Shown here: positions 7,042 through 47,851 of the stretch, piece by piece
Numbering within the stretch: the first letter of the stretch is position 1
Layout: every line of letters begins with the position of its first letter
IMG/VR virus record: IMGVR_UViG_3300028914_000059
Location: 116,071-180,070 of that record
Origin: a virus
Lineage: Duplodnaviria; Caudoviricetes
Length of the DNA stretch: 64,000 nucleotides
Strand: one strand, 5' to 3'
Notes under the pieces: model-generated
The model's database searches: none
What the model saw: the letters and a program-made list of their open reading frames with translations, nothing else
What the model was told of the DNA's origin: nothing
Made by a program: the position numbers and the translations under genes

Positions 7042-7221
7042 ATGAAACGTGGAGATGCTATGAAACTTCACAATGAAGACGAAGTTATAGTTAAAAAAAC
7101 AGGACAGGTTCTTCGGGTCATAAAAGCTTGGGGGCTGAATCTGGATAAACACAGAAATCCCAGCGTAATAGCTTTACTCCTGGATGATGGAATCTGGTAT
7201 ACTCACAAGGAGGTAAAATGA
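7042..7221 (+). CDS. small hypothetical protein
   Basis: GAGGAG RBS, coupled to next gene. Confidence 0.7.
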   Translation: MKRGDAMKLHNEDEVIVKKTGQVLRVIKAWGLNLDKHRNPSVIALLLDDGIWYTHKEVK

Positions 7222-7469
7222 ACAAAACTTATAGAATATTGTTTTATGGTCTGGAAGGGTCTCAGAAATGTCCTGTTGCTTACCGATTGAACAGGAGTAT
7301 ACCGCTTCGAGACGCTAAAAAGATGTTAGGGATCGAAAAGTGGACTGGGGACGGTATCCGCCTGACCTATGATGGTGGAGCCCTTCTCTCAATTGGTAAG
7401 CATGGACTAAGTAACCGTCTGGTATTTGCTTATCACAGCTATCAGATGAAAGGTAGAAAGTATGGCTGA
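7218..7469 (+). CDS. hypothetical protein
   Basis: GGAGGT RBS, ATGA overlap. Confidence 0.75.
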   Translation: MNKTYRILFYGLEGSQKCPVAYRLNRSIPLRDAKKMLGIEKWTGDGIRLTYDGGALLSIGKHGLSNRLVFAYHSYQMKGRKYG

Positions 7470-7710
7470 ACAGGAAATTATTAAATTACTTAAAGAGAAT
7501 GTAGATAAGGGTGTGTGTCTGGGCTTCATGCCTGATGATGTAGTGCGCTGGTGCAATAAGAACAAGGAGAAATTATATTTCTTCTTTGATTATATGATGA
7601 CAGACGATGGAAGTATGGAGCACGAATGGATAGGGTATGCTGATGCTGCTTTCGTGATAGAGGATGACTTCGGTCATTTAAGCGAAAGAAATATTGTTGC
7701 TATATATTAA
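7462..7710 (+). CDS. paralog family member 4
   Basis: MAEQEIIKLLKENVDKGVCLGFMPDDVVRW matches the family pattern. Confidence 0.8.
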   Translation: MAEQEIIKLLKENVDKGVCLGFMPDDVVRWCNKNKEKLYFFFDYMMTDDGSMEHEWIGYADAAFVIEDDFGHLSERNIVAIY

Positions 7711-7722
7711 GGAGGTAAAAAA

Positions 7723-8055
7723 ATGACAGATGTAATGATAGAGCTACAGTTCGCTTTGGATAAGTTCGGTTATAAATGGGAAGATATCGAGTGGGCACAT
7801 TTAAACAATAAAGCCAATGAGAGGGATGCTATAATAAAGCCCAGTTATTCTAAAGATGATATGGATAAATTTAAAGAGGACATCATCAATATGGGTCAAT
7901 ATGACGATGGCTACGGTGGTCAGGAACTCTTCGGAGATGTCGTATTCAAAGACGGAACCTGGTTAAGTAGAGGGGAATACGATGGTTCCGAATGGTGGCA
8001 TTATAACATCAAGCCCACATATGAAGCTTATATAAAAGATTTGGGCAGGGATTAG
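7723..8055 (+). CDS. hypothetical phage protein
   Basis: AAGGAGGT RBS; YDDGYGGQEL...RGEYDGSEWW motif. Confidence 0.8.
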   Translation: MTDVMIELQFALDKFGYKWEDIEWAHLNNKANERDAIIKPSYSKDDMDKFKEDIINMGQYDDGYGGQELFGDVVFKDGTWLSRGEYDGSEWWHYNIKPTYEAYIKDLGRD

Positions 8056-39724: not shown

Positions 39725-39926
39725 TGCATGCCTGGGGAGCAGCTCCTTTAGAGTGACCTCTACAAGCGGTCGGAACTCTGGACAAGGAACTGCTCCCTTG
39801 TCATATTTAATCACCTTCATTAGAGGGGGCCAATAGAGATATCTCTATCGGTCTCCTCTCTTTTTATTTCATATTTTTAGGTATAAGTGAATTGTTCCGG
39901 AACTTAAATATATAAAGGAGGCAAAA

Positions 39927-40174: not shown

Positions 40175-40720
40175 ATGTCAGCAATAGTTAGTACTAATCC
40201 ATGTGCGACAGAGCGATGCCCACGTTGTGGTGCAGGTCCCGAGAATATTTTTATTACCTCGGTAGAATTGGAAGAGACCGACCCACTGGTCTCATATTTT
40301 AAACATTTTGTAGATTTACATGGCTGCAAGAAATGTAAATTTACATGGGCAGAAAATGAAGCTTGTTATACGACAAGTCAGGTAGCCCAGTTTCTTATGA
40401 ACAGCTTTGTATCTCAGGTTAAGGAAGAGCTTAGTAATCGAGTTCAGACGCAGGTGTGGTTTGATGAAGTTACGAAATTGCTAAAGAAAGAAAAAGTATT
40501 ACCGGCCACATATGCTTTTGATAAAGCTAAAGGCTATGCTGAAAATTACCTGGATCTGCTTATAAAAGTCAATGACTTTATAACCAGTTCCAGTAGAGAA
40601 GAGTTGCTCGACCTGTATCAGGCATGGGCAATATATATGGAAGAACCACCAGAAGTGGTACCGGATGTTGATTCATTATCGGATCCATCTACTACTGACA
40701 AGGTTCTAATCGACGATTAA
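40175..40720 (+). CDS. Zn-ribbon protein
   Basis: CPRCG...CKKCKFTW. Confidence 0.8.
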   Translation: MSAIVSTNPCATERCPRCGAGPENIFITSVELEETDPLVSYFKHFVDLHGCKKCKFTWAENEACYTTSQVAQFLMNSFVSQVKEELSNRVQTQVWFDEVTKLLKKEKVLPATYAFDKAKGYAENYLDLLIKVNDFITSSSREELLDLYQAWAIYMEEPPEVVPDVDSLSDPSTTDKVLIDD

Positions 40721-40732
40721 GGAGGAAAACTG

Positions 40733-43700
40733 ATGGATTCAAATGAATTCATGGATAGGTGGAATAACAGACCTAATATAGAGTCAGACTCAGTAATTAG
40801 TCTGGCAAAATTTATGTCAGAAATGGATAACAAGACAGAAGAAGTAGTTACGGCGATAGATCCTAAGGTAACAACACTTCAGTCATCAAAGGCTGTAGCT
40901 GATTTTGTCCTGGACGTTAAGGCTTCAGACAGTTGGATAGAACCTATAGGGATAGCTTTATCCAAAGGTCGTGACAAGTTCATAGAAACCTGGAGAGCTT
41001 ACGTATCAGCCTGTTCTGATATAACAGAAGAAATATCTGATATATTACCGGACAGTGCTGCTGATAATCTTAACGCTACTATAGCTGCCCTGATGGAAAA
41101 ACATGGTCAGGCTAAAAAAGATACACCGGTTACTGATAATCTGTGTACTCTGTTCATTAAGAACTGCTGGGCTGGCTGTTCCCCTGAAATATGTAAAGCC
41201 GTAGATAAGATATATCTTAGCACTGGTAATATGACCAAGACAGCTTTCAAAGCATTGAACCGGGCAGTATATGATGCATTTCTGGCAGCCTCAAATATGC
41301 CATCTGAAAGCATAGTCAAGAGAATAGACTTTGGCAATGCAAACTGTAGGAGGGGCATCATAAACCAGACTCCGGTAGATATTCCAGGAGTAGGTTCTGT
41401 GAAGACTGTTGCAGCTTACAGACATACAATAAGTAATCTCGGAATGGATGAGGTTCAAAAAAATATCCATAATGCTACTGTCCATGACGGTTATCTTGTG
41501 TGGCTGGAAGACAGCAGATGCAAAGCACACACTTTACTGCATCTAGGGAAAGCCCCGGACAGTGGCATAATAGTTCATACGACTTCTGACTATTATCACG
41601 CCTCGACAGCTTCCAGCAGTATTACAAAACCTCAGAAAAGCAAAAAAGAGCTTGAGGAACGTATGAAGGAAGTACGAGCTGAGATAACCGGCCAGGTCGC
41701 AGGAGTAAACTGGGATAAGATGTCCACTATACTGAATGTTCTGGAAGAAATGGTGGATGATACTCTCACCAGCATAATTCGTGAGGTTATCAGACCTGAC
41801 CATGCAATAGAAGATCTAGTCAGTATATTCTTCCATCTATATGCTGATGGGACTATTCTTCGTGCTGGCTATATGCCAACTAACAAGAGAAAAATACCGG
41901 ATCTGGAAAAGAACCCATTCTGTGAACTGTTCCAGAGAGGTCTCTGCATTCCAATAAACTCCAACGGTCAGCAGATAGACAGAAACAGTATAGTAAAATC
42001 TATTATAGGTCTGTTGATAACTCCTGTTGATAAACTCAGAGTTGGTGCCGGTGACGTTATAGGACTGAAGCATATCGAAGATGTGGCTGAGCTTGTGAAG
42101 GTTCCAGTCAATACTGTAAGAGCTGCAGCTTTCCTGTTCGGTGTGACATATTATGATTCACTGGTGTGTTCCAGAGATACCGACACAGAAGGTGGCTCAT
42201 GGGGTGCAGACAGTAAATATAAATATTCACAGGCAGTAAAATTCAATGTCGGGCTTACCAATGTAATAAAAAGTAGTGGCTTCATGGATTTGATAGCTGA
42301 AGGTATAGAAAAATCCTTTAACCTGCTGATAGCTGCATTGAATCAGGTAATATTCCTTCCGGAAAAGTTACCAAGATCTCATGGTATAGCTCTCAGAAGA
42401 ACCCTGATGTCATTTCCTGAACTGTTGATGTTTAATGTTCCTGAACTGCTCAAGACTACTCTTCATAGTGTAATATCTCCAGCAATGGGTATATTGAAGG
42501 ATATAGGATTAAAGGCAGCAGCTGAAATTGCAGCTTCTGATATGGCGGCTACTTCAAGAAAGTACAGAATCTTGTTCGGACTCAGTAATGAGCTTGTTCA
42601 TCTAGTAATCCGTCAGAACAGAAGGGATGCCGGCTGGGAAGAATCTATGAATGCAGCGATTCCATATGCAAGTATGGCAGCACAATTCAAGCACGGTACT
42701 TCATTTCCTATAAACTTCAAGATATATGAAGATGAACCAAGTAAAAACCTGTCTTTGTTACGAGGGACAAGATACCCGGATCAGGAGCAGGAAACAACTG
42801 ATTCAGTCATAGATCAGATGGCTCGCCATGACACACCACCTAAGCTGGAATTTACCAATGCATCCAACACAGCTTTGAATATGTTCGGTATGGTGTCCAA
42901 GATTGCGTCTAACCTCAAAGCATTCTATACTAAGGTTGAAAGCGAAATAGTCAAGAATGTTGAGGATGAACAGCAGAAAAAGGCCTTCCACGAAAGGATA
43001 TGGAGTATGTATCCTGCAATGGAAACAAAACCGGTACTTATCATAAACGATACTATTGGGAATCTGATGTTCAGTACTCACTATGGTGGTATTATCCAGA
43101 AGGCTGATAGGCTTGTTCTTGAAAAAGAATACTGCAGAGCAAGAGCTGCTTTGGAAAGTGCATACTATATAGTAGCAAACAGCAGACCTCTGGTTCCAGC
43201 GGAATTACCTGACAAGGACAAGCTCTGGGAAGACTTTATTGATGATAGATGTGTTGTAACGGATGCTATGCGTAATGCCATCAACAGTAACAAGAAGATG
43301 GTAAAGCCAAGTCTGGAATCAGGCTTTGGATGCAAAACATTCATTGCACGCAGAAGAAATCATCAGACATTCAACCAGGCAGCTAATCGTTTCTGCACGG
43401 AACTGGCAAGGGCTTACGGACATCTTCCCCGATTAGGCTTCCCGTTCCAGGTTGTAAATGATCCGATTGTTGAACTGGATAAAATATATAGTCGGATGAC
43501 GGATTCATATTCTGCTGTAATGACTATAGCCGGACCTGATGCTACCAGCCTAGGCAGACTTCCGGAAATATGGGCTCAGGAAGAAGGGGGTCCTCGTGTT
43601 GCTATGATTCCTGATCTTGAAATAGTAGATATGACATATAGCAACGAAATACTAGAAGGCAGAATAAATGCTGAATCACACATAGAATCTCCCAGAACAC

Positions 43701-45805
43701 AGAACAGGGACACTATACTTGTAGGTCTGAGTCAGACTGAAATAGTAGAAGATACTACTCTGTTGTGGAAAATATCAGCTGCCGGCAACTCTGCTTCTCA
43801 CGGGTATCCTGCGCGTTCATTCTGGTCTATGGAGAAGATAGCCCGAACACCGGATGCCTATGATGGTTATGCAGTTTCAGGATATGTAGCCTCTCAGGCA
43901 GAAAATACGTATCTGAACGGGAATTGTGAAACAGCTATCGAAGAAGCAAACAATGCAGTGTCAATTACATATGCTGTTCTTGAGCCTTGTCTGGACCTGC
44001 CCAAAGTATACGATAAATACTGTGGGTTGCTGAAAGATGAGGAAGAAAAGAAAGCAGAAACTATCTCCACCATTAATATGGCTTCCTGGCCGGAATGGAA
44101 AGATATAGCAGACAGCAGATATACAAGAAGGGAATATGATGAGCAGGTAATGCGAAATGTCATGGACCCTAAAACCCGATTGTTGAAACGTCCGTGCCTG
44201 CTCCCATATGCAGAAACATTTGATATACACTCACATGTATATTTGTATGTAGATATGGGCAGAAGTGGTAGAAACGAAAGGGCGGCATTCTATACTATGG
44301 CTATTCTGGGCCTGAGCAATGTAAAGGAAATGTTCAGAAAAGCTGAGGAGCATGCCAAGGAAACTGAAGAACGCATGAAGCAGAGCAAGTCAGCTGCAGC
44401 CACTGTAAAGACGGATCCTGAGTCCTATATAGAAGGTGAAGTCACCAGAAGAATCAGTGATGTTAAGCTGTCTGCTGCCAAACGTCAGATAGAAGAAAAG
44501 ATGGAACAGCTTCGCAGGATGAAGGATGACTATATCAAGTACTATAACAAGTACAAACCCGAAATCCAGAAATATCGACATACAATGGCTGAGGGACGCG
44601 AACTCAAGGCCAGTGGTGCTATAATGGGAGCTGATGAAGAAAAGCTGAAAGCTATGATAGCTAAGGGAACGCTCCGTGGAGTAAGAATCTATGGAACATA
44701 TCCTAAGCTGAAAGCAATAGCTTATCTGCCATCCACATATATCTGGGTCGGTCCGTTCATCTATAACATAGGTGAAATAGCAGTCAAGATAGACAACTGG
44801 GGCACACCTAACGCTCAGGTCAGGTTCTACGGCAAGTTCTCACCGAAAGGTATGCTGCTGACAGCTCTGGAAGGATGTTCTACATTGCAGGAGGGCGCTA
44901 TGCAATGGATACAGGATGATATAGGAGATTATATAGATGCACCTCACGTAAGAAACAATACTGCCTGTCTAGGTAATATTGATACTGCTCTTCGTCAGGC
45001 CAGCAACGATCTTAGTCTCTCGCAATATATCCAGTACTGTTCCAGATATCTGCATACTGTAAATCTGGGTGACCATTATGGCAAATCCATAGTCAAGTGG
45101 CCAGCTGTCCCAGCTACATTCCACAATCTGGTCAAGTATGGTGCTCTGTGCAGTGGTAGAATAACAGATAGAATAGCAGTAATGACCGGTGCTCCATATA
45201 AGAATGATAATACCGGGTGGGCTATGTTCCTGCGACCTATGAACTGGGATAAGGAATTCGGAGGTAATGATGCTGTAGTCAAGGCTCTATGGGCTCATGC
45301 CAAGAGGGATCTTGATGAAGAAAAGTATGTTACTTCCGACCTTAGTGCAGCTCAGTTGTATGAAATGTATCCTAAATTAAGGGACGCATCTAACCAGTGG
45401 GTGTATGGTACTGTTGTAAGGCCAGCCGTTGACAGTCACGGTTTTGACATAACCTGCTGCCAGGCTGGGGAACGAATCATGCCGGACGTAAGACCAGGAG
45501 TTCCCCAGTACTGTTATGCAGAAATGGAAAGAATATGTGCCAGCGAACATCCGGGGTATGAGTTCTCACGTATGTTTGCACCTGATGCTGGAGTAGCCCG
45601 GAATCAGCTGGCCTGGCAGGACAGAGGGTATACAGACTCTGCTTCTATAAAGCTGGAAATGTTAAAGGGCTCACCTTTGATAGATTATCCAAAAGAAGTA
45701 GATGATGTCGACCCTAAACATCCACCGTTACCAGCATCAGCACTTCTTAAACAGGAAGCGGAATTGGCTGAATGGGAAGATGCTGACGAGCTGCCGTTCG
45801 AGTAA
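40733..45805 (+). CDS. 1690-aa protein with C-terminal prokaryotic E2-like domain
   Basis: coiled coil then PHVRNNTACLGN (Cys1412)...YL.TVN..D.YG....WP; next to JAB, E1 and Ubl genes. Confidence 0.65.
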   Translation: MDSNEFMDRWNNRPNIESDSVISLAKFMSEMDNKTEEVVTAIDPKVTTLQSSKAVADFVLDVKASDSWIEPIGIALSKGRDKFIETWRAYVSACSDITEEISDILPDSAADNLNATIAALMEKHGQAKKDTPVTDNLCTLFIKNCWAGCSPEICKAVDKIYLSTGNMTKTAFKALNRAVYDAFLAASNMPSESIVKRIDFGNANCRRGIINQTPVDIPGVGSVKTVAAYRHTISNLGMDEVQKNIHNATVHDGYLVWLEDSRCKAHTLLHLGKAPDSGIIVHTTSDYYHASTASSSITKPQKSKKELEERMKEVRAEITGQVAGVNWDKMSTILNVLEEMVDDTLTSIIREVIRPDHAIEDLVSIFFHLYADGTILRAGYMPTNKRKIPDLEKNPFCELFQRGLCIPINSNGQQIDRNSIVKSIIGLLITPVDKLRVGAGDVIGLKHIEDVAELVKVPVNTVRAAAFLFGVTYYDSLVCSRDTDTEGGSWGADSKYKYSQAVKFNVGLTNVIKSSGFMDLIAEGIEKSFNLLIAALNQVIFLPEKLPRSHGIALRRTLMSFPELLMFNVPELLKTTLHSVISPAMGILKDIGLKAAAEIAASDMAATSRKYRILFGLSNELVHLVIRQNRRDAGWEESMNAAIPYASMAAQFKHGTSFPINFKIYEDEPSKNLSLLRGTRYPDQEQETTDSVIDQMARHDTPPKLEFTNASNTALNMFGMVSKIASNLKAFYTKVESEIVKNVEDEQQKKAFHERIWSMYPAMETKPVLIINDTIGNLMFSTHYGGIIQKADRLVLEKEYCRARAALESAYYIVANSRPLVPAELPDKDKLWEDFIDDRCVVTDAMRNAINSNKKMVKPSLESGFGCKTFIARRRNHQTFNQAANRFCTELARAYGHLPRLGFPFQVVNDPIVELDKIYSRMTDSYSAVMTIAGPDATSLGRLPEIWAQEEGGPRVAMIPDLEIVDMTYSNEILEGRINAESHIESPRTQNRDTILVGLSQTEIVEDTTLLWKISAAGNSASHGYPARSFWSMEKIARTPDAYDGYAVSGYVASQAENTYLNGNCETAIEEANNAVSITYAVLEPCLDLPKVYDKYCGLLKDEEEKKAETISTINMASWPEWKDIADSRYTRREYDEQVMRNVMDPKTRLLKRPCLLPYAETFDIHSHVYLYVDMGRSGRNERAAFYTMAILGLSNVKEMFRKAEEHAKETEERMKQSKSAAATVKTDPESYIEGEVTRRISDVKLSAAKRQIEEKMEQLRRMKDDYIKYYNKYKPEIQKYRHTMAEGRELKASGAIMGADEEKLKAMIAKGTLRGVRIYGTYPKLKAIAYLPSTYIWVGPFIYNIGEIAVKIDNWGTPNAQVRFYGKFSPKGMLLTALEGCSTLQEGAMQWIQDDIGDYIDAPHVRNNTACLGNIDTALRQASNDLSLSQYIQYCSRYLHTVNLGDHYGKSIVKWPAVPATFHNLVKYGALCSGRITDRIAVMTGAPYKNDNTGWAMFLRPMNWDKEFGGNDAVVKALWAHAKRDLDEEKYVTSDLSAAQLYEMYPKLRDASNQWVYGTVVRPAVDSHGFDITCCQAGERIMPDVRPGVPQYCYAEMERICASEHPGYEFSRMFAPDAGVARNQLAWQDRGYTDSASIKLEMLKGSPLIDYPKEVDDVDPKHPPLPASALLKQEAELAEWEDADELPFE

Positions 45806-45869
45806 TAATGTGATGTAAAGCCTGGGGAGAAATCTCCAGGCTATTCTTAATAAACTAAGGAGTAAAACA

Positions 45870-46853
45870 ATGTCGATGGATTTCGAGTTTGGAAACAAGT
45901 CATTCTGTCCTAGAATTGATGTATCATACATGGCTCAGATGAAAATGGACATGTATGTTGAAATCGCCCAGAAAGAGGTGGGCTGGTATGGTCTCGTCGA
46001 AAGGACGGGTGAGAGTACGTTCTACATACACGATGTATATATGATAGAACAGGAAGTAAATGCTGCAACTACTGAAATAGATCCTATGGGTCTGGCTAAG
46101 CTGAAAACCACTCTGTGGAAGAGTGGCATCATAAACGCTGAAAACCAGTCAAAGATAGGATTGTATCTCTGGGGTCACAGTCATGTCAACATGGGCACAG
46201 GCCCCTCTGGTCAGGATAACAGCCAGCTGGAGAGTATAATAACTACCAGTAATCCACCATTCTTCATCCGATTAATTCAAAACAAGAAGGGTGAGAAGAA
46301 TATCGTGCTGTTCATCAACAATATCCCGATGTTACAGAGTATGACCATCAAGCAGCCCATATGGTCTCCGGAACCTAATCCTGCGGTGGCTGAACTTATG
46401 GAACAGCTGAAAGTTGAAATGAAGGAAAAGGTTAAGGACAAGGCCGTATATACAACACCTGCTTATGGTAACTACTATAGTGGCAAAGGCTATAAAGCAT
46501 ATGACAGTGTCTATGGAACATATGGTCTGTATGATGATGAGTATGATGCCTATGACGCTGGCATAACCACAGCCGAAGACGGTGTCCCTGAAATAACCGG
46601 AACTAAGACTCTTGGTAAGGTAGCCAGAAAGGCCGCTCCAGTCAATAGTTATAAAAGACCAGTTGGCCGCCCACCAAAGGCAGCCGCAGCAGCTAAGAAA
46701 GTTCCCGCAGAAGTTATCCCGCCGGCACCAGCGCTACCTTCACTGGCCAGTGCACGCAAGACTACTGAAGAAATACTAGCGAGGTATTCCCAACAAGCAG
46801 ACTTTCCTAATGTTACTAAAGACGATCTGGGAATACCTGATAAGGTGGTCTAA
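45870..46853 (+). CDS. JAB/JAMM metallopeptidase (deubiquitinase-like)
   Basis: EVGW...HSHVNMGTGPSGQD fits E...HxHx7Sx2D exactly. Confidence 0.9.
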   Translation: MSMDFEFGNKSFCPRIDVSYMAQMKMDMYVEIAQKEVGWYGLVERTGESTFYIHDVYMIEQEVNAATTEIDPMGLAKLKTTLWKSGIINAENQSKIGLYLWGHSHVNMGTGPSGQDNSQLESIITTSNPPFFIRLIQNKKGEKNIVLFINNIPMLQSMTIKQPIWSPEPNPAVAELMEQLKVEMKEKVKDKAVYTTPAYGNYYSGKGYKAYDSVYGTYGLYDDEYDAYDAGITTAEDGVPEITGTKTLGKVARKAAPVNSYKRPVGRPPKAAAAAKKVPAEVIPPAPALPSLASARKTTEEILARYSQQADFPNVTKDDLGIPDKVV

Positions 46854-46892
46854 AATTCTGGTATAAGTGAATTGTTTGAAAGGAGATTTATC

Positions 46893-47603
46893 ATGGCTGA
46901 AATGACTGAAATCTCCGCCCAAGGTCTTTGGAGACAGATGGGGTTCTTCACCCCTGACTGGCTCGGAGATAACAAAGTTCACATTGTAGGAGTCGGCGCC
47001 ACAGGCTCCCACATTGCAGATACTCTAGCCTCCATGGGTATCAGAAACCTTGAGGTCTATGATTTCGATAAGGTAGAGGAACATAATCTACCGAATCAGA
47101 TTTATGAGCTGCGTGATATCGACACCCTCAAAGTAGATGCTCTTAAGCGTCATATAAAAGAAAAGATGGGTTATGATATCATCACGCATAATGAGAAGGT
47201 CGAAAAAATAGAAAACCTCAAGGGCTACCTGGTTCTCTGTACTGACAGCATGGCTGTCCAGAAGCAGATACTGTTAAGCAGTGGAGCCAGAAACCCGGAC
47301 TGCCTCGGGGTGATCGAAACTCGCATGGGTATAGATCAGGGCAGAGTATACTTTTTTGACCCCCGCCTAAAAGGACACTTGAAAAAGTGGGGTGAAAGAT
47401 GGTATAGTGATGAAGAAGCAGGAGAATCTCCATGTACGTTGAGAGCAATATCAATGACAGCAAAAATGATAGCAGGTATTGCCTCAGCGAGGATTATCCT
47501 GGATCAGCGGCGTCTCCACGAAGAAAATTCTGGAGATGTCATAATTTACAATGAAACAATCATTCATTGTAATGGGAAGTCCTTAAACTATGTTTGGGAC
47601 TGA
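46893..47603 (+). CDS. ThiF/E1-like adenylyltransferase
   Basis: GVGATGS, DFDKVEEHNLPNQ, LCTDS; distal SPC candidate catalytic Cys. Confidence 0.92.
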   Translation: MAEMTEISAQGLWRQMGFFTPDWLGDNKVHIVGVGATGSHIADTLASMGIRNLEVYDFDKVEEHNLPNQIYELRDIDTLKVDALKRHIKEKMGYDIITHNEKVEKIENLKGYLVLCTDSMAVQKQILLSSGARNPDCLGVIETRMGIDQGRVYFFDPRLKGHLKKWGERWYSDEEAGESPCTLRAISMTAKMIAGIASARIILDQRRLHEENSGDVIIYNETIIHCNGKSLNYVWD

Positions 47604-47641: not shown

Positions 47642-47851
47642 ATGAAACATGTTGAAGTAGGTCGCGTTAGTGGTCAAACCGTAGGAATTTATTTGCAGGA
47701 TGGCGAAACTGTAGGAACAGCTTTAGAAAGAGCCGGTATTGAACTTCAAGACAAGGAAGAAATAAGTATCGACGGTAATAAAGTTTCTACTTCCTATGTT
47801 CCTGACGATCACGACAACATCGTTATAACCATGCAGGTAAAAGGTAACTGA
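47642..47851 (+). CDS. ubiquitin-like (beta-grasp) protein
   Basis: 69 aa, GETVGTAL...IDG...DNIVI pattern, ends VKGN. Confidence 0.8.
   Translation: MKHVEVGRVSGQTVGIYLQDGETVGTALERAGIELQDKEEISIDGNKVSTSYVPDDHDNIVITMQVKGN

Follow-up and report, generated by a model that had tools for sequence, protein, structure and literature searches.

We analyzed the final 64 kb (64,000 nucleotides, hereafter the window) of a 180,070-bp virus record (IMG/VR IMGVR_UViG_3300028914_000059, positions 116,071 to 180,070), in which a 1690-aa open reading frame (ORF; 40733-45805, plus strand) precedes genes for a JAMM peptidase-like protein, a ThiF-type E1-like enzyme, and a small ubiquitin-like protein (Ubl). This giant protein probably serves as the E2-like member of a ubiquitin-like conjugation cassette carried by the phage, and the set suggests that the phage has its own protein-tagging machinery. 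We regard as new the E2-like sequence family, its architecture, and its carrier, a phage; conjugation cassettes as such are already known in bacteria.

The giant protein and its candidate catalytic domain

The giant gene, with a strong AGGAGG site 7 nt 5' of its start, is divided as follows.

40733..45805, plus strand: giant ORF, 1690 aa, ATG start, 21 clusters in an exhaustive HMMER search
40733..44332, plus strand: N-terminal region (residues 1-1200), soluble, largely alpha-helical, fast-evolving
44438..44614, plus strand: long single helix or coiled-coil stalk (residues 1236-1294), helix 17-75 of AlphaFold2 (AF2) model m4c0c8464b148, predicted local distance difference test score (pLDDT) 82-92
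44618..45262, plus strand: UBC/E2-like domain (residues 1296-1510), with a helix, four-strand meander, two-helix insert, H..C loop, and helices
44945..44947, plus strand: CAC codon of the invariant His1405, at the place of the E2 'HPN' histidine
44966..44968, plus strand: TGT codon of the invariant Cys1412, candidate thioester cysteine
45263..45802, plus strand: C-terminal tail (residues 1511-1690), acidic (isoelectric point 4.6), with Cys1575, 1576, 1594, and 1602, low model confidence

A sequence-only reading of this DNA had proposed an E2-like domain near the C-terminus, with a candidate catalytic Cys placed after a coiled coil. Both elements are present: the TGT codon encodes Cys1412 within a PHV/CLGN motif, and AF2 gives a single 59-residue helix (1236-1294) ahead of a globular domain. 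The model covers residues 1220-1690 and used a 22-sequence alignment (mean pLDDT 67, with 80-92 over residues 1240-1470). Its elements run from the 59-residue helix through a short helix, four antiparallel strands, a two-helix insert, and the His/Cys loop to further helices. The N-terminal helix, four-stranded antiparallel meander, and C-terminal helices by which a UBC fold is recognized are thus all found in the prediction.

The earlier interpretation is partly supported: structure comparison favored its E2 assignment at the level of a predicted model. A VIA scan, independent of Foldseek, compared the C-terminal model with 48,161 PDB representatives. The long helix matched coiled coils only, and the globular part (model residues 80-241) matched sixteen PDB entries, every one a UBC or RWD fold; the matched folds were the LTN1 RWD, a T. 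cruzi E2, UBE2O, UbcH10, UBE2E1, UbcH5c, Ubc9, and Pex4. In the model, Cys1412 (model residue 193) is located between strand 4 with its insert and helix 197-206. This invariant Cys therefore occupies the predicted loop after strand 4 and before the crossover helix, as in the UBC/E2 superfamily. Only the expected size of ~150 aa had to be revised: the E2-like unit, recognized by its predicted fold and invariant His/Cys pair, is ~215 aa long (1296-1510), with two insertions accounting for the difference. We also weighed a papain-like Cys/His peptidase but rejected this possibility, since a single loop holds both residues, with the His 7 positions ahead of the Cys, and the fold matches are to UBC/RWD.

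Homologs were then compared. Word-index searches with the whole protein, with a profile of 20 full-length members, and with a short variant found nothing beyond two close relatives (P0002 and P0003, 96% and 71% identical to the giant protein, P0001). When 1.84 billion representatives were searched exhaustively with HMMER, with residues 491-1690 as the query, 21 related clusters were recovered. Three entries of 75, 308, and 452 aa are possibly fragments or else shorter forms; all others measure 1260 to 1731 aa. Confident alignment is mainly limited to residues 1225-1550, within which the consensus D-x-P-H-V-R-x4-C-x-G-N stands out. The sequence-only reading would have fallen had this motif varied among homologs; H1405, C1412, and G1414 are instead invariant in all 21 sequences, as are Y1439, D1447, G1450, T1462, N1465, and G1470, and D1402, P1404, V1406, R1407, and N1415 are conserved in at least 90%. 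Since overall identity outside the motif is 15-29%, its conservation is not due to chance. Set against the E2 HPN motif, P-H-V-R supplies an invariant His 7 residues ahead of the Cys; no Asn follows this His, and the highly conserved Asn (N1415) belongs to C-x-G-N. Conservation peaks in residues 1401-1450, the best 50-residue block, with 45% identity to distant homologs, and a further motif, LRR-x-R-E-x-Y, is conserved in the stalk helix region.

The remainder of the protein behaves very differently, with the first 1200 aa only 6-19% identical to distant homologs. Judged from the alignments, constraint falls on the C-terminal domain, and evolution of the N-terminus is very rapid. Islands are still recognizable among the first 1200 residues (Y161, H623, D773, Y812, P819, W1119, and D1164), so orthology across the clade extends over the whole giant protein. 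The C-terminal tail (1511-1690) is kept only within a subgroup of homologs of 1670-1731 aa. AF2 modeled residues 1-1200 mainly as helices at a pLDDT of 48, with confident stretches at ~60-190, 330-370, 500-650, and 710-825. VIA and Foldseek comparisons of this model found nothing beyond generic helical bundles, a result that does not show the fold to be new, and no RING, HECT, RBR, or other E3-type module was recognized in the region. Residues 808-827 (window 43154-43213) hold a conserved Y-Y-(I/V)-V-x-x-(S/R)-R-P-L-x-x-E-(E/L) with a weak match to All0216 (PDB 3jsr, E 0.007). This short match was the sole one in a family-profile search of PDB sequences, and nothing is built on it.

Sequence-family searches agreed with the earlier impression that the rest of the protein lacks a recognizable motif: no part of the giant protein significantly matched Pfam, PHROG, PADLOC, NCBIfam, or PDB sequences, and an ESM Atlas feature search gave no usable match. 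A DUF413 match in Pfam (E 0.01) fell below the cut-off and was set aside. No transmembrane-like segment is present in the protein. The E2 hidden Markov models (HMMs) PF00179, PF14457, PF14459, PF14460, PF14461, and PF14462 yielded nothing at E <= 10 when run on the 180-kb genome, and a Pfam scan of the E2-like domain alone was blank at the same threshold. With no UQ_con or Prok-E2_A/B/C/D/E match, the domain is not filed in those families. PADLOC models for Bil, CBASS, and other defense systems likewise matched neither the whole protein nor the E2-like domain. Taking conservation and the predicted structure together, the giant protein is best read as a new, divergent E2-like family joined to a fast-evolving helical region.

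Neighboring genes and conserved gene order

The genes and elements that flank the giant gene are listed below.

39879..39896, plus strand: phage promoter-like motif AGGTATAAGTGAATTGTT, head of the operon
40175..40720, plus strand: 181-aa protein with an N-terminal CxxC...CxxC zinc ribbon and an acidic L-x-D-D tail, directly 5' of the giant gene
45819..45842, plus strand: hairpin, terminator-like or attenuator, between the giant and JAB genes, 10-bp stem with 6 GC pairs
45870..46853, plus strand: JAMM/MPN+ (JAB) metallopeptidase-like protein, 327 aa, JAMM motif, weak JAB HMM matches
46860..46876, plus strand: second copy of the 17-nt promoter-like motif, ahead of E1-Ubl
46893..47603, plus strand: ThiF/MoeB-type E1-like adenylyltransferase, 236 aa, Pfam ThiF 4.4e-18
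47642..47851, plus strand: 69-aa beta-grasp Ubl with C-terminus V-K-G-N, weak profile matches

The E1-like protein also matches NCBIfam ThiF, MoeB, and cap2 models (best: ThiF and MoeB) and the PADLOC CBASS E1-E2 (Cap2) models down to 2.5e-15, and its Gly-rich loop, D-F-D..N-x-P-N-Q block, and S-P-C188 are invariant. The JAMM signature E36 + H103-S-H105-x7-S113-x2-D116 (codons 46176-46217) is invariant in 6 homologs, and the gene is the single match in the genome to the Prok-JAB HMM (E 0.009). PADLOC also reports a JAB match (E 0.013), and PDB profile matches were to archaeal JAMM1 only, aligned on the motif at E 0.4. Weak matches of the Ubl are to Ub-Mut7C, ThiS, and SAMP2 (E 3e-4 to 0.1). 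Its homologs end in IKGN, IKGN, and IKGA, with K67 and G68 invariant. Judged by these sequence signatures, the E1, JAMM, and Ubl neighbors have the identity that defines a prokaryotic E1-E2-JAB-Ubl cassette (Iyer 2006 class; Bil/Bub-like).

The order Zn-ribbon, giant protein, JAB, E1, Ubl is repeated in contigs L004, L005, and L007, and L001, L002, and L003 show the same order as far as each contig reaches; the order is thus kept in every related contig long enough to show the whole set. Homologs of the Zn-ribbon protein lie immediately upstream of the giant gene in L001, L003, L004, and L007 (blastp E 1e-94 to 5e-5). This protein has no family match and may be a fifth cassette component, whether adaptor, E3-like, or substrate. 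A convergent baseplate module comes after the cassette, which always adjoins this tail/baseplate module.

A degenerate-motif scan of IMG/VR returned 4 loci, one of them a true relative (L014/G001), and an IMG/VR scan with alignment A10 gave no confirmed locus. The relative is a short cassette on the minus strand of a 25-kb IMG/VR contig (G001; L016 6528-10447), with genes for a Ubl ending in EGG-C, an 84-aa ORF, a 555-aa E2-like protein, a JAMM protein, and a 237-aa ThiF. The 555-aa variant, encoded between the Ubl and JAB-E1 genes, has a coiled coil, a compact version of the E2-like domain, and a Cys-rich C-terminal tail. Its motif reads D-H-P-H-V-S-x4-C-W-G-N, retaining the Cys that corresponds to Cys1412. 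Because this variant occurs in the same cassette, the E2-like core stays with the cassette whatever the size of the N-terminal region (~400 to ~1400 aa). In L016, the Cys-rich tail is fused to the E2-like protein in place of a separate Zn-ribbon protein.

Several further features of the neighbors were recorded. The hairpin at 45819-45842 is GC-rich with a T-poor tail after it and could attenuate read-through into the JAB gene. The C-terminal third of the JAMM protein (window 46650-46853) is a low-complexity tail of Tyr/Gly-rich repeats with an AT-hook-like K-R-P-V-G-R-P-P-K (Pfam AT_hook E 0.1), and such tails differ widely among orthologs, with long acidic repeats in L005, for example. The same contig encodes, between its E1 and Ubl genes (7148-7735), an extra 195-aa protein that is nearly all acidic G-E-E-D-F-type repeats. 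ThiF-like genes ~27% identical to the E1 are present in 82 GenBank phage records (for example, KT876724.1 63878-64564), most of them from FpV4-like phages of Flavobacterium and crAss-like phages of Bacteroides. The FpV4 gene is located among replication genes (toprim, uracil-DNA glycosylase), with no annotated E2-like or JAB gene nearby. Plasmid relatives of the E1 are ThiF genes beside major facilitator superfamily transporters or ATPases, with no E2 nearby.

The record is estimated by CheckV to be 93% complete. The window encodes five tRNAs, a class-II-like ribonucleotide reductase with a TSCPD domain, and ThyX; its minus strand encodes a sigma-like factor, a baseplate-J/wedge protein, an M23-peptidase tail protein, and several proteins of 650-1340 aa. 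This tailed-phage gene content identifies the source as a large tailed phage. A tblastn search of 50,697 GenBank phage genomes with the giant protein gave zero matches.

The window contains 12 copies of the motif AGGTATAAG, on the plus strand only and at sites from 3661 to 39879, against 0.9 copies expected. The 17-nt core of the motif, GGTATAAGTGAATTGTT, heads the operon at 39880. The listed E1 start, TTG 46872, lies within the second copy of this core, so ATG 46893, with AGGAG upstream, is the likelier start and gives the 236-aa protein. Its distribution makes AGGTATAAG a candidate for a phage-specific promoter element that would mark a single temporal class of genes. It also stands ahead of an uncharacterized neighbor gene just downstream of the ribonucleotide reductase gene, and the cassette lies on the strand opposite to the structural/baseplate genes. 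From the shared motif and this opposite strand, we infer a non-structural, intracellular role during infection, which would place the cassette outside the late structural class.

Proposed pathway and rival explanations

The analysis shows a conserved motif, a predicted fold class, identifiable neighboring genes, and a conserved gene order; the thioester chemistry, the direction of transfer, the specificity role of the N-terminal region, and the target are our inference. In the proposed pathway, the JAMM peptidase would trim the single residue (Asn) beyond Gly68 of the 69-aa Ubl. The ThiF-type E1 would adenylate Gly68 of the trimmed Ubl, which would be handed as a thioester to Cys1412 in the divergent UBC-fold domain on its ~60-residue helical stalk, with His1405 in the role of the E2 'HPN' histidine. 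Discharge would be onto a target lysine. A Ubl overhang beyond the conserved glycine has precedent, since some bacterial BilA Ubls bear overhangs of 2-9 aa (Hör et al. preprint 10.1101/2023.09.04.556158), and this supports the conjugation reading. Choice of the target may fall to the helical, fast-evolving N-terminal region of ~1200 aa, perhaps in concert with the upstream-encoded Zn-ribbon protein. Such an arrangement, which we put forward tentatively and by analogy, would make the protein an E2/E3 hybrid with a logic comparable to that of UBE2O or BIRC6. With these eukaryotic giant E2/E3 hybrids the protein shares no detectable similarity in sequence; its N-terminal region is without a recognizable fold, and its substrate binding is hypothetical.

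The giant protein could instead be mainly a substrate or carrier: once loaded onto its UBC-like domain, the Ubl would be transferred in cis to lysines in the N-terminal region or tail of the same polypeptide. The product so modified would then be the functional one, for example as an assembly factor or packaged protein. With 110 lysines in the protein, a long stalk that sets the domain apart from the rest, a cassette that always adjoins the tail/baseplate module, and E3-free, self-contained conjugation known from CBASS Cap2 (PMC11601603), this idea has its attractions. However, the gene is opposite in strand to the structural genes and sits behind a promoter motif common to non-structural genes, and variation across the N-terminal region is too great to reveal any conserved acceptor sites; we judge self-modification unlikely.

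Two further explanations, each of which we regard as improbable, dispense with conjugation by the giant protein. The E1, Ubl, and JAB proteins might relay sulfur in the manner of ThiS/MoaD carriers, to thiolate a cofactor, tRNA, or DNA, with the giant protein an unrelated enzyme or scaffold whose His and Cys serve other thiol chemistry, such as persulfide handling. The E1 is indeed a minimal ThiF with ThiF and MoeB as its best NCBIfam models, the weak Ubl matches point to ThiS and Ub-Mut7C, JAB-ThiS-E1 sulfur clusters have been described (Iyer et al. 2006, PMC1779556), and ThiF-like genes of other phages, such as that of FpV4, occur in DNA-metabolism contexts. Yet no sulfurtransferase, rhodanese, or cysteine desulfurase was found among the cassette genes examined, the globular domain with the invariant Cys matches UBC/RWD folds only, and the E1 also matches the CBASS Cap2 E1 models. 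Alternatively, the fold likeness could be superficial or the domain a non-catalytic RWD/UEV-like interaction module, with a metal-binding or structural His/Cys pair and with the linkage to the Ubl gene reflecting Ubl or E1 binding. UEV and RWD domains that lack catalytic activity no longer have an active-site Cys, whereas Cys1412 is invariant, which disfavors this option; His and Cys are the two most strictly conserved residues and fall, in the model, at the position of the E2 active-site loop.

Known systems and significance

Bacteria are known to encode E1, E2, JAB, and Ubl in separate genes, in the classes of Iyer 2006 (PMC1779556), and Bil and Bub act in anti-phage defense (PMC11601603, 10.1101/2023.09.04.556158). 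Like Bil (BilABCD) and Bub/6E, the phage cassette encodes the same four activities (Ubl, E2, JAB/peptidase, and E1) as separate neighboring genes, including a JAMM peptidase, a ThiF-derived E1, and a Ubl with a conserved C-terminal Gly that in Bil is sometimes masked by a short overhang. Unlike them, it is carried by a lytic-type 180-kb phage genome, not a bacterial defense island. Its E2-like domain matches no Bil, Bub, or Prok-E2 profile and is fused behind ~1300 aa, its Ubl is a single 69-aa ThiS-like beta-grasp, and its E1 is only 236 aa.

Type II CBASS Cap2/Cap3 resembles the cassette in the Cap2 'E1-E2' models matched by the E1 domain (2.5e-15), in the JAB partner, and in needing no separate E3. 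In contrast to CBASS, where Cap2 is an E2-E1 fusion, the phage has separate E2 and E1 genes, no CD-NTase, a free Ubl, and an E2-like domain without a Prok-E2_B match. A phage Ubl-JAB pair is known from lambda/T1 tail assembly (TAPI/TAPK; Iyer et al. 2006, PMC1779556), likewise with a beta-grasp Ubl bearing a terminal Gly and a JAB near tail genes. Lambda, however, lacks an E1 and an E2-like protein, and its JAB is fused to NlpC/P60, whereas a full activation and transfer set is present here. Neither a complete phage-encoded set nor the giant E2-like family was described in the literature covered by our search.

Bacterial ubiquitin-like conjugation has so far been studied as host defense against phages (CBASS Cap2, Bil, Bub), and many eukaryotic viruses use protein tagging for their own ends. 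If our reading holds, a complete phage E1/E2-like/JAB/Ubl set would reverse the defense picture, and bacterial viruses may exploit protein tagging themselves. As no current E2 sequence profile detects the E2-like domain, similar enzymes have probably been missed in virus annotation. Since the Ubl ends in K-G, modified lysines should retain a mono-Gly remnant after trypsin digestion, so that the target search is open to direct test. The fusion to a huge, fast-diverging region would offer a natural system for how an E2 gains substrate specificity without a separate E3. More speculatively, a clade of large phages may carry a self-contained tagging system, built from an undescribed UBC-like E2 and a hypervariable ~1200-aa targeting region. 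Such a system would tag host proteins (for example, in defense or proteostasis) or the phage's own, with the N-terminus tracking host targets in an arms race.
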